Source: a virus
Direction: 5' to 3' (one strand)
Virus record (IMG/VR): IMGVR_UViG_3300028901_000105
Coordinates: 1 to 62,718 of that record
DNA length: 62,718 nt
A model generated the notes under the pieces. It saw only the letters and a list, made by a program, of their open reading frames with translations. It ran no database searches and had not been told where the DNA came from. Shown here one piece after another: positions 9,247 to 52,619 of the stretch. Positions within the stretch are counted from its first letter, which is position 1. Each line of letters starts with the position of its first letter. Made by a program: the position numbers and the translations under genes.

Positions 9247-9800
9247 GTCGTGTTCGTTCGTTGTTCCTGCTTTATCTCGTGTTGTTCGTGCTTGTCCCGG
9301 TGGCCGCCGCACAGGATATTCCCGGCGTACCCACCACTGAAGACATTCTCGGCCCGGTCGCTGCAATCGCGGTCGCGGTCAATGCATTTGTAGAATTCGT
9401 CAAGCCGCGTGTTCGGACGACGAAATTCTCGGTTGGTGTACAAGACTCGCTGCTGCTATTGATCGCGGTGTCTGCGGGAATCGCTGCGGTGTTTATGGCT
9501 GGTGGGGCGGCGAACTTGTTTCCGAATATGCCAGTCCGCTACCAGACATTTGCGCTTATTCTTACAGGCGTAGTCGCGGCTTTCGGTGCTGAATTCCTGC
9601 ATGTGCTGGTCGATTTCTTGTACGCTGGTCGGGATTGGCTGCGACCGACGCCGGATGCATCCGAAAAGGTTTCGCGTTCGGATTTAAGCAAGGCGCTGCG
9701 GCGTAACGTCCCCGTGCCGGAAATTGGTACGGCTAAGGGGCAAATTGATGTGGATGTCTATCCTCGCTTGCACCCTTCGCCTCCTGACGAACGCAACTAA
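9243..9800 (+). CDS. Holin-like multi-pass membrane protein
   Basis: GTG start overlapping the upstream stop. Signal-like N-terminus plus about 3 hydrophobic helices. Last gene of the lysis block. Confidence 0.5.
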   Translation: MSRVRSLFLLYLVLFVLVPVAAAQDIPGVPTTEDILGPVAAIAVAVNAFVEFVKPRVRTTKFSVGVQDSLLLLIAVSAGIAAVFMAGGAANLFPNMPVRYQTFALILTGVVAAFGAEFLHVLVDFLYAGRDWLRPTPDASEKVSRSDLSKALRRNVPVPEIGTAKGQIDVDVYPRLHPSPPDERN

Positions 9801-9823
9801 CAGTCTAAAACCTGATGATTATG

Positions 9824-9850
9824 ACCGCCCTCCGGGGCGGTTTGCATTTA
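9824..9850 (+). terminator. Rho-independent terminator after the lysis block
   Basis: accgccc-tccg-gggcggt stem-loop followed by ttgcattta. Confidence 0.7.
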
Positions 9851-9870
9851 TAGAACTTCCGTGCTATATT
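9842..9870 (+). promoter_or_regulatory. Promoter, GAAC-N4-GTGC family (TTGCAT-N17-TATATT)
   Basis: TTGCATttatAGAACttccGTGCTATATT. It faces the ORF-free region 9871-10549. Confidence 0.55.
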
Positions 9871-9876
9871 TTCCTT

Positions 9877-10375
9877 GTCACGAGGCAAACCCTACTTCCT
9901 GTTTAAACAAGTAGAAAGGACTGCCTGGTAACACACGCCGCCGCCGAAATGGTATCGGTCGTTCCTCGAAGGGGAGCGCAAAGAGTCTCGGTACTCACGG
10001 CGGCACATGCGAGGGGGCGCTCGGCTTTCGCCCTTAAATCAGCAGAATGGCGCTGCTGTCCGGTAGCATCAGGGGGCAACCTCCGTTTACATGGTTGCAT
10101 TTCATTGGGGCGGTGGCGTCATTCTATCCCCGCTATACTGCTGACAATAGACGCAAACAAAACAGCAGTGGATAGCCTAACAGATGGTAAGGCGAGCCAT
10201 AGCCGAAAGGTTTTCCTTGCTTTATAGTCCGGGTGCAATTCCCGGCAAGGCTTCATACCCATATGACGGTTGGTAGGTTGGCGGGTGTGCGACACGTCGC
10301 TTTAAGCCGTAAAGCCGTCAAACAATGCCATTGCAGTTTCGTATCGGTGACTGTCCTACCGCAGTCACCCGCTTG
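9877..10375 (+). ncRNA. Large structured non-coding RNA of unknown class (boundaries approximate)
   Basis: Largest ORF-free stretch of the genome, with a promoter upstream. Many local helices, for example cagcag/ctgctg at 10040-10058, gcaacc/ggttgc at 10076-10098, nested ccttg..ccggg..cccgg..caagg at 10215-10250, and ggtgactg/cagtcacc at 10346-10369. Confidence 0.45.
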
Positions 10376-10450
10376 AAGGGTGTAGCTTAACCGGAAAAGC
10401 ACCCGGCTCAAGGGCGAGGCGATACTGGTTCGAATCCAGCCACCTTTCCA
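10376..10450 (+). tRNA. tRNA-like element (non-canonical anticodon arm; G3:U70)
   Basis: 7-bp acceptor aagggtg/caccttt with a G:U at pair 3:70. D arm gctt-aaccggaa-aagc. T arm ctgg-ttcgaat-ccag. Followed by cca. The anticodon stem has only 3 of 5 pairs around the loop ctcaagg. Confidence 0.45.
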
Positions 10451-10549
10451 TTTTAAAATTAGCGCTTGGCGGTCGGCAGCGCGGCCATAGTCCAGCAAGG
10501 GTTTCTTGTCTGTGATGAGTTGGCAGTCCCGCCACATGGTGTTTGTAGC

Positions 10550-12778
10550 TTAGCGGTAAAGCGCCTGATTGTGGTCGCTAACGTGATGCCATATCCACGT
10601 TTCGTCAACTTGCGGTTCGCACTCGCTTACTTGACTCTTCTCTGGCAAATTGGGTTCCAACGTTCGCGTCACTTTGCGCTCAACGATGCCCCGGCCATCC
10701 GGTTCGCTCATCTGCTCGGCAACCGCGACCTTGTACCCCTTCTCAACCAAGAGGTTAATGTATTGGTCAACGGCATGATGCGGGACGCCCGCCATTGGCA
10801 CACGTTCATCACGACTGATCGGACGCCCGGTAAGCACCAAATCGAGTTCACGCGCGGCGGTTTCGGCATCGTCATCGAAGGTTTCGTAAAAGTCTCCCAA
10901 GCGGTAGAAAAGGATGTGATTGGGGTACTCTTTTTTAATGTCTAGGTATTGCTGGCGCAGCGGGGTAACACGGGTAGCAGACTTGAAGGCCGAAACAGTT
11001 TTGAACGCGCCGCCGCTGGCGACTTGTACGAATTTGTCATTAGCTGCTTGAACATCTGGGTCTTCGAGTGCCAGATGAACGACTGGTGACATATTCAGCG
11101 TTTCAGCAAATGCAGCATCAGCAGCGCGGGCAGCTTCATTGACTTGTTTCACCCAAGCGTCTGTTTTAGCAAGATCATCCTCAACAGGCGGTGCGGTTGT
11201 AACCATATCCCACAAGCAAAGCATTCCATGAGGAAGGTTTTCAAACCGCACAGTCAGCGCTAATGGGCCGCGATTCTCAACTTTGCCTTTTGTGCCAGCC
11301 GGAACAATGACCTTTCCTTGCTCGTGAATATCTTCACTGGCATAAATGGTTGAACCTTTCTTAATTGTCTTTAGCGTGGCGTCGCTAGCCCGAGGGATAG
11401 GCTTGAGATTTTCAGGCGGTGGTACTGGGAAATCCAGATCAATGCCGTTCTCTGCTGCCCATGCTTCGCCAGCTTCAGTTATTTCAATCTTTGCCCAATC
11501 GTTGGTATCGGTAATAAACCCATGCTCCCGCAATGCCTTGCGGGTTGCCGCGTTCTTGACAACCGGTTCGCCTTTCGCTAGTGCCTGAAGGAATTCAACC
11601 TGTCGCACTGGTAGCATTAGACTTGGCGTATCAATCCGAATTTCAGGCAGATTATGTTTCGCTGCATGGCAGTTCCGGCAAATCACCTTGCCATACGGCA
11701 GCCCCATTAATGGCTTTGCCCAACCCGGTTGTTGAGCAGCGCGGTTCGACTCCGAATCAAGAAACACGCCGCACACATCACAACATATCCAACCAAGCCA
11801 ATCTTGACCGGGTTTAAGATCGCGCTTGGAGTCGTTCTCAACCATGTAGGGGCTTGTGCCGTCGGCTTCATTACAAGGCGGCAGCTTCATCACGCATTCC
11901 CAGCAGTACAACTCGCCATTGCTGGGATATAGGTCTACGCTAAGCTGTCCACATTGGGTGCAATAACGTGCTTCTGACTTAGGCGAAAATTCGCGGATTT
12001 TGCCAAACGGTGTCGGGCTGAAATGCAGATCGCGCTCAATGCGTAAATTGTAATGCCCACGCGACGCTCGAATTTCAGTGAGAGGGATATATCCCCATTC
12101 AGCACCATCGGGATAATCTGAATTGTAGGCATACCCAAAAGCCACGTCGCTTTTCGGATCGTACTCCACGATGTACCATGTCCATGAACTGTCAGGCGTG
12201 AACCAGCGGACATGCACAATCTTTTCCGCTGCCGGAATGCTTTCGGTTTCGTACATACCGGGGATTGCATGGCCGGGCGGAATAAGCACATAAGCGCTAT
12301 TGGAAGCAGGCCAACGATTGGCGGGGCGCAGCAGATGAGTTGGAATGACGAGTGTTGCACCTTCTACTTGTACACGCGAATGGGCTGGTAGTTCGCGCTC
12401 GATTTTCAACCATGTACCTTTCAGCACACCTGATGGGCTATCCCATTCAACAGAGTCACCGTCGGTAAATGAAATAACATCGTTTTTCTGCACTGGCGGG
12501 GGCGCAGATGCTTGGATTGCAGGCTGTGGCGGCTCAGATACCTTAATCGGCGTTTTGGGGCTTTCTGGTGCGTTTAACAGCCCTTCCATGCCGTACACAC
12601 CATCTACAATTTGCTGCACAGCATCCGGCAGCTTTTCACCCGTGTAAATCCAACAAACCTTTTTGTCGTCCCATTTACACCCGGCTTGACGCAAAGCATC
12701 TTTGTATTGGGGAACAGCCTTGATCTCCCAACTTCCTTCGACCTTTTTTGCTGTAACTGATGTTTTTGCTTTCGTCAT
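10550..12778 (-). CDS. Multidomain protein: DUF5710-like N-terminus, DUF2958-like domain, zinc ribbons, C-terminal MutS domain I (mismatch-binding domain only)
   Basis: The C-terminus QQYLDIKKEYPNHILFYRLGDFYETFDDDAETAARELDLVLTGRP..PMAGVPHHAVDQYINLLVEKGYKVAVAEQM..VERKVTRTLEP aligns with the bacterial MutS N-terminus, including GDFYE. The mid region FTPDSSWTWYIVEYD..FGYAY..EWGYIPLTEI..IERDLHFSP is DUF2958-like. CxxC pairs are also present. Confidence 0.8.
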   Translation of the reverse strand: MTKAKTSVTAKKVEGSWEIKAVPQYKDALRQAGCKWDDKKVCWIYTGEKLPDAVQQIVDGVYGMEGLLNAPESPKTPIKVSEPPQPAIQASAPPPVQKNDVISFTDGDSVEWDSPSGVLKGTWLKIERELPAHSRVQVEGATLVIPTHLLRPANRWPASNSAYVLIPPGHAIPGMYETESIPAAEKIVHVRWFTPDSSWTWYIVEYDPKSDVAFGYAYNSDYPDGAEWGYIPLTEIRASRGHYNLRIERDLHFSPTPFGKIREFSPKSEARYCTQCGQLSVDLYPSNGELYCWECVMKLPPCNEADGTSPYMVENDSKRDLKPGQDWLGWICCDVCGVFLDSESNRAAQQPGWAKPLMGLPYGKVICRNCHAAKHNLPEIRIDTPSLMLPVRQVEFLQALAKGEPVVKNAATRKALREHGFITDTNDWAKIEITEAGEAWAAENGIDLDFPVPPPENLKPIPRASDATLKTIKKGSTIYASEDIHEQGKVIVPAGTKGKVENRGPLALTVRFENLPHGMLCLWDMVTTAPPVEDDLAKTDAWVKQVNEAARAADAAFAETLNMSPVVHLALEDPDVQAANDKFVQVASGGAFKTVSAFKSATRVTPLRQQYLDIKKEYPNHILFYRLGDFYETFDDDAETAARELDLVLTGRPISRDERVPMAGVPHHAVDQYINLLVEKGYKVAVAEQMSEPDGRGIVERKVTRTLEPNLPEKSQVSECEPQVDETWIWHHVSDHNQALYR

Positions 12779-38257: not shown

Positions 38258-38347
38258 ATAAAACCGCAAGGGGCTTGCAAAGATTTTGGTATGCTGGTAT
38301 TTTTATATAGAACGGATTTTCGCATTTAAGCGGGAACGGTTGGTTAT

Positions 38348-38420
38348 CCACTCGTCGGCTAGTCGTCTAGGCCGCCTCCTTCTCAGGGAGGAAACGCAGG
38401 TGCAAATCCTGCCGAGTGGT
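38348..38420 (+). tRNA. tRNA-like gene, anticodon CUC (Glu) by position; atypical D and T loops
   Basis: Acceptor ccactcg/cgagtgg (7 bp). D stem ggct/ggcc. Anticodon stem cctcc/ggagg with loop ttCTCag. T stem gcagg/cctgc with loop tgcaaat. Followed by cttttcgttt. The D loop lacks GG and T-loop position 55 is G. Confidence 0.55.
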
Positions 38421-38438
38421 CTTTTCGTTTATGGGGAG

Positions 38439-39976: not shown

Positions 39977-40522
39977 ATGACCTGCATTGTCGGTATAGAA
40001 CACGAAGGTAAGGTCTACATGGGGGCTGACAGTATCGGGGTTGATGGCTGGCAGCGAACCGTTATGGATTTCCCTAAAGTGTTCCACGTTCGGGATTTAC
40101 TCATTGGTTGCGCTGGCAGTATCCGGGCATTGCAACTTCTTCGCTATAACCTCGATGTGCGTGCACGAAATGACAGCGAAGATGATATGGAATACATGGT
40201 TACAGGTGTTGCGGATACCGCCCGGCGATTATTCAAAGATAGTGGCTGGTCGCACATCGAAAACAATAAAGAGTCTGGGGCTAATTTCCTTGTCGGTTAT
40301 CGGGGGAGATTGTATGCCGTTGAAGATGAATTTAGCGTTGTGCGTATGCAGCAACCCTATTGGGCGCTTGGGGTAGGGAAGGTTTACGCATTGGCAGCCA
40401 TTCTCACCCTGCGCTCGGAACGCGATGATTTGACTCCTGAGCATCAAATCAATCGTGCGTTAAAAGTGGCATCGGAATTAAGCATCGGTGTGCATCCGCC
40501 ATTTCACATTGAAAGTCTGTAG
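39977..40522 (+). CDS. HslV / proteasome beta-like Ntn peptidase (family T1-like)
   Basis: MTCIVGIEHEGKVYMGADSIGV...PKVFHV..LLIGCAGS aligns with the HslV sequence TTIVSVRRNGHVVIAGDGQ...KVRRL..VIAGFAGG. Thr2 is the predicted nucleophile. Confidence 0.6.
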   Translation: MTCIVGIEHEGKVYMGADSIGVDGWQRTVMDFPKVFHVRDLLIGCAGSIRALQLLRYNLDVRARNDSEDDMEYMVTGVADTARRLFKDSGWSHIENNKESGANFLVGYRGRLYAVEDEFSVVRMQQPYWALGVGKVYALAAILTLRSERDDLTPEHQINRALKVASELSIGVHPPFHIESL

Positions 40523-40598: not shown

Positions 40599-40692
40599 GA
40601 TAGGCATAGGCAGTCTAGGGTAGCTCCCAAAAAGCGGTAAACCTCACCGTCTGGCTGTCTAAACATCAAGAGGTGTAGCATAGAGGTGTGCT

Positions 40693-51612: not shown

Positions 51613-52616
51613 AATACCTTGTGACAGGTGGGTTTGGATTTATTGGCAGTCATCTTGTGGAACGGCTGCTGAAGGATGGGCATCAGGTTCACATTGTTGA
51701 TAACCTGAGCAGCAATGGGGTAATGCCAGATGTTCTGCTGGACGAATGGGGGCATCCTGAAGGACTCACATTTGATCTGGCGGAATTCACAGAATGGCGT
51801 GAGGGGAAAGCCTACCACCATCGGGGTTTTGACGGCATCTTTCATCTCGCCAGCCCGGTTGGGCCAGCCGGGGTTCTGCAACATGCGGGCGATATGGTAT
51901 GGGACATCACCATGAGTACCTACGCTGCAATGGCATTGGCACAAAATGTCTGGAAGGCCAAATTGGTGGATGTTTCCACCAGCGAAGTCTACGGTGGCGG
52001 CCAGCAGGGATACTGCTCTGAAGAATTGCCCCGAATCATTCAGGCTGAAACGACGGTTCGGCTTGAATACGCCGTCGCAAAGCTGGCCGCAGAAACCGCG
52101 ATTATCAACATGTGCAAAGTACATGCGCTTAATGCCGTTATTGTGCGCCCGTTCAATGTGGCTGGGCCGCGCCAGTCCGGTAAAGGCGGCTTTGTGCTGC
52201 CGCGCTTTATTCAGCAGGCAATGGCGGGTAGTGGGCTAACCGTGTTTGGCGACGGATCGCAGATTCGCGCCTTCACGCATGTGGTAGACATCGTAGATGG
52301 GCTGGTACGCGCAATGGACAAGGGGCGCTCTGGCGAAGTCTACAATTTGGGCAACCCTGCCAACAAAACCACCATCCTTGATCTTGCAGAACGGGTTATT
52401 GAGATTGTGGGGCAGGGCGCGATTGTCTTTACCGATCCCAAACTGCTGTATGGGAAGCTGTATGCGGAAGCGGCGGATAAGTATCCAAACGCCACCAAAG
52501 CACAGCGCGATTTGGGATGGACACCTACACGCAGTATTGACCAGACGATCAAAGACGCCTATGCCTACATACAGCATTTAGCCGAGCCTGTTGCAATTAC
52601 AGAACACTTGTGCTAA
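51609..52616 (+). CDS. NAD-dependent sugar-nucleotide epimerase/dehydratase (SDR)
   Basis: VTGGFGFIGSHLV (GxxGxxG), YAVAKLAAE (YxxxK). 335 aa. Confidence 0.85.
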   Translation: MKYLVTGGFGFIGSHLVERLLKDGHQVHIVDNLSSNGVMPDVLLDEWGHPEGLTFDLAEFTEWREGKAYHHRGFDGIFHLASPVGPAGVLQHAGDMVWDITMSTYAAMALAQNVWKAKLVDVSTSEVYGGGQQGYCSEELPRIIQAETTVRLEYAVAKLAAETAIINMCKVHALNAVIVRPFNVAGPRQSGKGGFVLPRFIQQAMAGSGLTVFGDGSQIRAFTHVVDIVDGLVRAMDKGRSGEVYNLGNPANKTTILDLAERVIEIVGQGAIVFTDPKLLYGKLYAEAADKYPNATKAQRDLGWTPTRSIDQTIKDAYAYIQHLAEPVAITEHLC

Positions 52617-52619
52617 ATT
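52591..52619 (+). promoter_or_regulatory. Promoter, GAAC-N4-GTGC family (TTGCAA-N17-TAAATT), overlapping the epimerase stop
   Basis: TTGCAAttacAGAACacttGTGCTAAATT. Confidence 0.55.

Follow-up and report, generated by a model that had tools for sequence, protein, structure and literature searches.

A modular non-coding RNA cassette interleaved with tRNA-like elements in an uncultured temperate phage

Introduction

Islands of transfer RNA (tRNA) genes in phage genomes repeatedly hold large structured RNAs, of which GOLLD and ROOL are examples. The stretch of DNA analysed here (the window) is 62,718 nucleotides (nt) long, positions 1 to 62,718 of IMG/VR virus record IMGVR_UViG_3300028901_000105. 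It belongs to an uncultured temperate tailed phage, in which Pfam scans find genes for an integrase, a primase, DnaB, a UvrD-like helicase, a terminase, a portal protein and a MuF-like protein. Between two convergent genes, at 9801–10549, the phage carries a cassette that adds to the known examples two modules without a match in Rfam. The cassette is non-coding, has a conserved promoter and a plus-strand RNA structure that is under selection, includes degenerate tRNA-like elements, and is built from modules that occur in other combinations in related phages.

The locus

The gap is bounded upstream by an open reading frame (ORF) for a membrane-like protein of 185 amino acids (aa), ending at 9800, and downstream by a minus-strand ORF of 742 aa, ending at 10550. 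It is placed between putative lysis genes and the replication genes for primase and DnaB. The features of the cassette, all on the plus strand, are as follows.

9823–9843, plus: intrinsic terminator hairpin of the upstream operon, GACCGCCCTCCGGGGCGGTTT, read from the sequence as a GC hairpin with a T-run
9842–9870, plus: promoter with -35 TTGCAT, 17-nt spacer and TG-extended -10, TGCTATATT, from a pattern scan and conservation
9876–9933, plus: P1, a 58-nt 5'-terminal hairpin with a variable tip, from comparison of the window with the relatives L007, L047 and L084
9936–10011, plus: P2-P3-P4, a 76-nt extended hairpin with two 29-nt blocks, from comparison of three lineages
10013–10098, plus: variable hairpin region (10013–10035, 10040–10058 and 10076–10098), from comparison with relatives
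10107–10131, plus: hairpin Ba (GGGG/CCCC), whose loop opens with the conserved GGUSG, from compensatory changes
10137–10169, plus: helix Bb (ACUGCUG/CAGCAGU) with a partly conserved loop, from comparison with relatives
10215–10250, plus: decayed tRNA-like element, with a T-arm-like hairpin at 10229–10245 nested in CCUUG/CAAGG, from homologue comparison
10251–10263, plus: invariant 13-mer CTTCATACCCATA, directly 3' of the decayed tRNA-like element and identical in the window, L007 and L048
10265–10319, plus: 3' domain, with closing helix GACGGU/GCCGUC and core GGUUGGCRGG...GCGACAYGUCGC...CCGUAAA, from comparison of three lineages
10346–10369, plus: 8-bp hairpin just before the tRNA-shaped element, from compensatory changes
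10376–10449, plus: tRNA-shaped element "Leu-CAA", 74 nt, from ARAGORN and the Rfam tRNA model (37.9 bits, cut-off 29)
10449–10537, plus: spacer, about 95% identical to L048 and partly common to L007, from alignment
10538–10573, plus: remnant of a tRNA-His(GUG), the 5' half, which stops immediately behind the anticodon; homology to L048 ends after GTG

P1 and P2-P4 are referred to below as module A, and the elements from the variable hairpins to the 8-bp hairpin as module B.

An initial annotation, made from the sequence alone, had described this gap as the largest non-coding stretch of the genome. This is correct once two mechanically called ORFs inside it, at 9949–10227 (plus, 92 aa) and 10253–10537 (minus, 94 aa), are set aside: the gap then measures 749 ORF-free nt, against 387 nt for the next largest in the window. 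Neither of the two ORFs matches any Pfam or PHROG family. When the gap is compared with the homologous loci in translation, all six frames show similarity, confined to the conserved nucleotide blocks, and the indels between homologous cassettes are not multiples of three. The stretch 9801–10549 is non-coding, with no conserved ORF and no conserved small-protein gene to explain it.

Relatives of the cassette

Parts of the cassette occur in four other lineages, represented by the metagenome contigs L007, L047, L048 and L084, which were found by tracing homologues of the flanking proteins to assembly contigs. There are thus five lineages in all, three to four of them for each module. L007, a 55-kb phage contig, is identical to L008, and L002 is an identical copy of the window.

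The window and L007 come from distant phages: their 185-aa proteins are 43% identical, the 517-aa proteins encoded upstream 27% and DnaB 23%. The gene DNA of these neighbours is 53–58% identical between the two, and module A 80%; over the whole RNA the identity is 61%.

Further searches added no copies. Exact-pattern scans of IMG/VR with six conserved-block patterns returned nothing, or matches in coding DNA that were checked and found to be due to chance. Among 185,579 species genomes there was again nothing, or 35 chance matches, in which nhmmer limited the similarity to the 18-mer itself. It follows that the RNA was not copied from any host gene represented in these genomes. A blastn search of 50,697 phage records (INPHARED) gave no match, and a covariance model (CM), R1, run over 40 loci and the window, found no extra or diverged copies. 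A metagenome scan with the family of the upstream 517-aa protein yielded 31 loci, none carrying the RNA or a tRNA, and the contigs L003–L006, which hold the few relatives of the 742-aa protein, end before the locus or are without it. In the protein-based tracing, P0013 proved to lie in bacterial, non-phage surroundings. The RNA family is rare, with five lineages so far, and its general importance is uncertain for this reason. The sole hint to the host is that homologues of the 517-aa protein occur in Anaerolineae metagenome-assembled genomes; the phage lineage, which has hardly been studied, probably infects Chloroflexota.

A conserved promoter behind a conserved terminator

The terminator of the upstream operon was missed by a simple terminator scan because its T-run is only 3 nt long. 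The initial annotation had placed a promoter of the form TTGCAT-N17-TATATT directly behind it, and this promoter is present, with a perfect match, overlapping the terminator hairpin and T-run. Both elements are kept in L007, L048 and L084, the terminator nearly identical and the promoter including its spacer. From the position of the promoter we infer a transcription start at about 9876.

The proposal that four other promoters in this genome belong to the same family proved weak, with 11 sites at two mismatches or fewer against 10.3 expected by chance. The sole site in the window that shares the spacer motif of the cassette promoter lies at 52591. This unusual motif, TTAnAGAAC...GTGCTAnATT, is found there at 52591–52619 and in the relative at L007:17929–17965, a hint of a promoter type specific to the phage or of a site where a regulator binds.

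Module A

P1 folds alike in the window, L007, L047 and L084 when each sequence is folded alone, and it shows one G-C to U-A compensation in addition to G-U variants. P2-P4 is absent from L048 and L084, and its two 29-nt blocks are invariant across the window, L007 and L047. Three to four base pairs of P4 are changed on both sides, with three different standard pairs at three positions, and P3 carries three invariant G-U pairs.

Independent minimum-free-energy folds of the four module A sequences agree in architecture. In the alignment fitted to the model, 96.8% of the cells are paired, compared with 34–51% when the partners are slid by one to three columns, and only 1 of 500 column shuffles reached the observed values. 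Of the seven pairs that the tool scores as changed on both sides, two were discounted because they rest on L084, which has no P2, and five were retained.

The R1 model scores module A at 146–154 bits on the plus strand, whereas on the minus strand the score is 28 bits (against 153) and P1 alone is matched. This asymmetry, the G-U pairs, the strand dependence of folding in the 3' domain and the orientation of the promoter together assign the RNA to the plus strand.

Module B

The helices of module B stay paired in L007 and L048 by two-sided changes or through G-U intermediates, and compensatory changes are seen in five of them. The 3' helices were tabulated by hand; MAFFT misaligns them. The variable hairpins lie at equivalent positions in L007 and L047 with different sequences, and the gcaacc/ggttgc hairpin is common to L048, with three loop positions differing. 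The stem of Ba is GGGAC/GUCCC in L007 and GGCGC/GCGCC in L048, with two pairs changed on both sides, and the position aligned with Bb holds CCUGU/ACAGG in both of these relatives.

Next to the decayed tRNA-like element, the 13-mer might alternatively pair with the T-arm strand (GGGUG/UACCC), although its sequence is invariant and so offers no covariation to judge by. In the 3' domain, about 55 nt long, two to three pairs of the closing helix are changed on both sides among the three lineages, and the inner helix UGGCR/YGUCG covaries from G-C to A-U. Its plus strand folds below shuffles with z = -1.9, against z = +0.1 for the minus strand. In the 8-bp hairpin that follows, L007 has A-U replaced by U-A and C-G by G-C, and L048 has A-U replaced by G-U.

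Folding energies of plus-strand segments are modestly below those of shuffled sequences (z from -1.9 to -2.7), and the whole region reaches z = -2.98. The structure of P1–P4 and of the 3' domain is under selection. The initial annotation had spoken of a highly structured RNA locus, and all the helices it named are present; comparative support, in the form of compensatory changes, attaches to ggggc/cccc, to the T-arm-like ccggg/cccgg and to ggtgactg/cagtcacc. The structure is specific to the transcribed strand, as seen from the G-U pairs and the CM asymmetry. Covariation across the homologous loci is counted in small numbers, from three to four lineages per module.

This strand dependence bears on the idea that the gap is an element acting at the level of DNA, such as a phage attachment site (attP), a replication origin or a packaging site. 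The gap does lie between putative lysis and replication genes (primase, DnaB) in an integrase-bearing phage, it contains tRNA-derived sequence, as attP sites often do, and P1 is a 58-bp imperfect palindrome. Such a role is nevertheless highly improbable: the conserved G-U pairs are A-C mismatches on the other strand, and folding is strand-asymmetric. The region has no iterons or direct repeats beyond the tRNA-derived ones, and the integrase gene, some 3 kb distant, has a convergent gap of its own beside it. In addition, the tRNA-His remnant is a 5' half, where an attP would be expected to hold the 3' part.

tRNA-shaped and decayed tRNA elements

The cloverleaf-like element of 73–75 nt with which the initial annotation had the region end is recovered at 10376–10448/9, with 74 nt by ARAGORN and 37.9 bits with the Rfam tRNA model. 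Its 7-bp acceptor stem, D arm and T arm (UUCGAAU loop) are intact, and it has G-1/C73. Only three of the five positions of the anticodon stem pair, and the variable region is 5 nt. Bacterial tRNA-Leu is a class II tRNA with a long variable arm. The element is not a normal tRNA-Leu, since its G-1/C73 is of the tRNA-His type and it has no long variable arm.

In the L048 orthologue (L048:2313–2386, 41.5 bits), the acceptor, D and T arms are retained and changes in the T stem are compensated. The anticodon arm of this orthologue is unrelated, with the loop ACAUGGG and the anticodon AUG in place of CAA. A second pair of orthologues, L007:14146–14219 and L084:1449–1520, follows the same pattern, and the anticodon loop of the L084 member has 10 nt. 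With whole anticodon arms and anticodons differing, a stem broken in one case and a loop of 10 nt in another, decoding is doubtful.

Further upstream, the element at 10215–10250 has a T-arm-like hairpin with the loop UGCAAUU (UGCAAKU across lineages) and a compensated T stem. The copies in L007 and L048, about 70 nt long, have a 7-bp acceptor-like stem, AGUCUCG/CGAGRCU, in addition to the T arm, and the window copy is more decayed than either. ARAGORN reports the L048 copy as a weak tRNA-Phe(GAA), at lowered threshold only, and the Rfam tRNA model gives no match to the ~70-nt element. At L048:2070–2306, an inserted ORF of 78 aa (phrog_6978) separates the structured RNA from the tRNA-like element; the window does not have this ORF.

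The initial annotation had likened the locus as a whole to large ornate phage RNAs. Its 3' half is in part a decayed tRNA, and the cloverleaf is followed by the spacer and the truncated tRNA-His. An intact tRNA-His(GUG) is found at L048:2476–2548 (Rfam 70.8 bits), and the stop and last codons of the minus-strand 742-aa gene are read from the antisense of the window's remnant. The truncation marks a recombination breakpoint in an anticodon loop.

In another related phage, L044, an analogous ORF-free convergent gap at 11747–12602 contains, besides an unrelated leader of about 330 nt, a tRNA-Tyr(GUA) and two fragments of tRNAs. Judging from this gap, cargo of tRNA and non-coding RNA seems to have a general landing site at this position of the genome.

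These remnants suggest another account, in which the locus is a decaying island of tRNA genes and its helices are functionless vestiges of dead tRNA genes and scars of recombination. The truncated tRNA-His at 10538–10573, the degenerate remnant at 10215–10250 and the broken anticodon stem of the element at 10376 all speak for decay, as do the tRNA-Tyr and tRNA fragments that L044 holds behind its unrelated leader. As an explanation of the whole cassette, however, decay is decidedly unlikely. P1–P4 is not tRNA-like, and it has 29-nt invariant blocks and compensatory changes concentrated in helices; the 3' domain and the hairpins Ba and Bf keep their pairing through two-sided changes; and L047 maintains P1–P4 with its own promoter and terminator and with no tRNA.

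Known RNA families

The initial annotation had called for a scan against Rfam, and had noted that GOLLD and ROOL lie in a similar context. At gathering thresholds, Rfam 15 matches only tRNA in the region. With cmscan at E ≤ 10 over 9700–10700 the result is again tRNA only, with no GOLLD, ROOL, transfer-messenger RNA (tmRNA), group I or II intron or RNase P RNA, and none of 6S, SRP, HEARO/OMEGA, YrlA or the C4 and CI antisense RNAs. The homologous loci in L007, L044, L047, L048 and L084 likewise match no Rfam family but tRNA at E ≤ 1. Membership in GOLLD or ROOL is thereby contradicted. The cassette holds two structured RNA modules that match no Rfam family, and the suggestion that it may be a new class therefore stands.

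The two ORFs inside the gap, and a permuted tmRNA called by ARAGORN at lowered threshold (9858–10318 of the window, tag ANKTAVDSLTDGKASHSRKVFLAL), might be taken to mean that a small-protein gene or a tmRNA explains the region. This is barely credible. The ORFs belong to no family, the six-frame similarity follows nucleotide blocks and the indels are not multiples of three, as described above; ARAGORN at its default threshold finds no tmRNA in the window, and the tmRNA families of Rfam give no match at E ≤ 10. We regard the low-threshold call as a false positive, since it is not reproduced in L007 or L048 and neither the pieces of its tRNA domain nor the tag are conserved. The acceptor-like stem AGUCUCG/CGAGRCU also has U3-A/G70, where tmRNA has G3:U70. 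A similar low-threshold tmRNA call in L044 overlaps the genuine tRNA-Tyr, and the two false calls are a caution for automated annotation.

Possible antisense targets of the RNA elsewhere in the window amount to 28 matching 11-mers, against 15 expected, none of them in the conserved single-stranded blocks, and the idea of such targets was dropped.

Modularity among related phages

The homologous cassette follows the same terminator and promoter in L007/L008, L048 and L084, and is partial in the latter two. The window and L007 keep the full order of module A, module B and tRNA. In L084, the terminator, promoter and P1 are followed directly by the tRNA-like element. In L048, the terminator and promoter precede a different 5' region without P1–P4, followed by the middle and 3' parts, which are themselves mosaic, some stretches resembling the window and others L007. 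In L047, no RNA follows the homologue of the 185-aa protein. Instead, P1–P4 with two hairpins and an intrinsic terminator form a separate unit of about 300 nt upstream of an xis-like/integrase operon, maintained with its own promoter and terminator and without a tRNA. The parts thus occur separately, and the locus is a mosaic whose separable modules lie in a hot spot of recombination.

The initial annotation had envisaged a single RNA of about 500 nt joined to a tRNA-like element. A fixed RNA of this kind is not borne out, as its pieces stand apart in L084 (P1), L047 (P1–P4) and L048 (the rest), and no conserved long-range helix was found, the long-range pairs predicted for the window not being kept in L007.

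A single large multi-domain RNA could still be proposed, a new class resembling GOLLD and ROOL, with a variable 5' domain, a tRNA-like element in the linker and a conserved 3' domain, acting as one folded and perhaps oligomeric particle. The window and L007 keep the same order of parts over about 500–575 nt despite protein identities of 23–43%, the middle and 3' parts persist in L048, where another 5' region precedes them, and the whole region folds below shuffles (z = -2.98). GOLLD, too, combines a conserved 3' region with a less conserved 5' region, sometimes has tRNAs in the linker and is found in phages and tRNA islands (PMC12286853). Yet neither GOLLD nor ROOL is matched even at E ≤ 10, P1–P4 and two hairpins make up a terminated unit of about 300 nt at another site in the L047 genome, and P1 of L084 directly precedes the tRNA-like element. 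The lack of a conserved long-range helix, with the window's predicted ones lost in L007, and the whole-RNA identity of only 61% between the window and L007 also argue against it. We give a single large RNA a real but minor chance of being correct.

Another possibility is that P1 or P1–P4 is a leader acting in cis, either a processive antiterminator like put or an RNase III site, that allows read-through of the hairpins and terminators downstream. Wherever a cassette includes P1, this hairpin lies at the inferred +1, and in L047 the intrinsic terminator is followed by the xis-like/integrase operon on the same strand. The put RNA of phage HK022 consists of two stem-loop domains close to the promoter. 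By analogy, the two stem-loop domains near the cassette promoter might work in the same way. No likeness to put RNA in sequence or size was seen, although no test was aimed at such a likeness. L084 has P1 alone, the unit in the window meets a convergent gene and carries nothing that encodes a protein, and the int operon of L047 appears to own a promoter-like sequence. A leader function is very unlikely on these grounds.

A proposed processed RNA unit

The reading that we favour, at about an even chance of being right, is that the cassette is an autonomous, moron-like unit for stable RNAs, and that cleavage at the tRNA-like elements divides its transcript into several small RNAs. The sigma-70-type promoter at 9842–9870 would drive a plus-strand transcript from about 9876. 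P1 would form its 5' end, which it most likely protects, and the separable modules would follow: P2-P4, the variable hairpins, the decayed tRNA-like element, the 3' domain and the tRNA-shaped element. Host RNase P and RNase Z would then cut at the tRNA-like elements, a form of "tRNA punctuation", and release an RNA containing P1–P4, a 3'-domain RNA of about 110 nt and a tRNA-like piece. The released RNAs may act in trans, and the modules would be swapped among related phages by recombination.

The acceptor and T arms are the main features by which RNase P, RNase Z and the CCA-adding enzyme recognise their substrates. The acceptor and T arms of the cassette elements are kept, and their anticodon arms are unrelated or broken, as expected if these elements serve mainly as processing or structural signals.

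Several points weigh against the processed unit. Its start site, cleavage sites and separate products are all inferred. The comparison draws on five lineages, three to four per module, so that few covariations are counted, and these are in part fitted to the model. In the mosaic L048, some of the identity could reflect recent exchange, not selection. Finally, the full order of modules A and B and tRNA in the window and L007 fits one large functional RNA as well.

A bolder reading, which we consider unlikely, would make the cassette a phage RNA class of its own, with conserved structured domains joined to tRNA-shaped scaffolds whose anticodon arms can be exchanged freely. Such RNAs could be decoys or sponges, possibly for anticodon nucleases, tRNA-tail nucleases or enzymes that modify or process tRNA, or they could form a GOLLD-like assembly in which an assembling RNA displays tRNA-like modules. 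If either the punctuation or the decoys turn out to be true, the cassette would provide a testable handle on why non-coding RNAs and tRNAs are located together in phages.

Comparison with known systems

GOLLD is universally conserved in its 3' region and variable in its 5' region, with tRNAs sometimes in the linker, and occurs in phages and tRNA islands; both GOLLD and ROOL self-assemble into homo-oligomeric cages (PMC12286853 for GOLLD and ROOL). The cassette resembles both in being phage-encoded, in adjoining and interleaving with tRNA and tRNA-like genes, and in having several hundred nucleotides with many helices. In a pattern similar to that of GOLLD, it varies more in its 5' than in its 3' part among relatives and has a tRNA-like element mid-way. 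It differs in size, with about 500–575 nt before the tRNA against typically more than 800 nt in GOLLD. Unlike GOLLD and ROOL, it has no Rfam match at E ≤ 10, parts of it occur as separate units in relatives, and its sequence gives no indication of a pseudoknotted long-range architecture or of oligomerisation.

The tRNA operon of phage T4 includes two stable RNAs, species 1 and 2, that are co-transcribed with the tRNAs and released by the tRNA-processing machinery. By description, the cassette may be likened to these phage non-coding RNAs on a tRNA transcript, with processing as our proposal. T4, however, is a virulent Escherichia phage, and several of the cassette's "tRNAs" are degenerate.

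Another parallel is found in bacterial YrlA/Y RNA, which has tRNA-like domains (PMC4201824). In YrlA/Y RNA and in MALAT1-mascRNA, as in the cassette, a tRNA shape with acceptor and T arms and a non-decoding "anticodon" region is attached to a larger non-coding RNA. In contrast to these systems, processing of the cassette is proposed from its features, and the cassette matches no Rfam family other than tRNA, and hence no model of the YrlA type. No Ro60/TROVE protein was found among the 27 ORFs of the window that were scanned against Pfam.

Phage tRNAs with altered anticodon loops escape the anticodon nucleases of the host (PMC10264068). There, as here, the tRNA genes are phage-borne and the differences between relatives are concentrated in the anticodon arm. 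In those tRNAs, however, the identity of the anticodon is kept and only loop positions differ, whereas whole arms and anticodons (CAA versus AUG) differ in the cassette.

Two features of the cassette are not seen clearly in the known cases. Its parts are shuffled as independent modules, and these modules are interleaved with tRNA shapes that keep their acceptor and T arms, not their anticodon arms.

Other features of the window

Two Pfam domains are matched in the protein encoded by the convergent gene downstream (10550–12778, minus strand, 742 aa): DUF2958 and, at the C-terminus, the MutS mismatch-binding domain I. It has no further Pfam match; in particular, Pfam does not find the MutS ATPase domain in it. 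Its homologues are very few (7 at E ≤ 1e-10), and in relatives its gene is followed by one for an N6-methyltransferase.

A promoter-like TTGCAA-N17-TATTTT precedes a second, canonical tRNA of the window, tRNA-Glu(CUC) at 38275–38421 (51.4 bits). An ORF of 181 aa (39977–40522), immediately upstream of the packaging genes, has a weak match to a proteasome subunit (PF00227). The Rfam int-alpA RNA is matched at 40608–40673 (41.9 bits, cut-off 35.8), where it adjoins not the integrase but an HNH-like ORF and the terminase gene, upstream of both.

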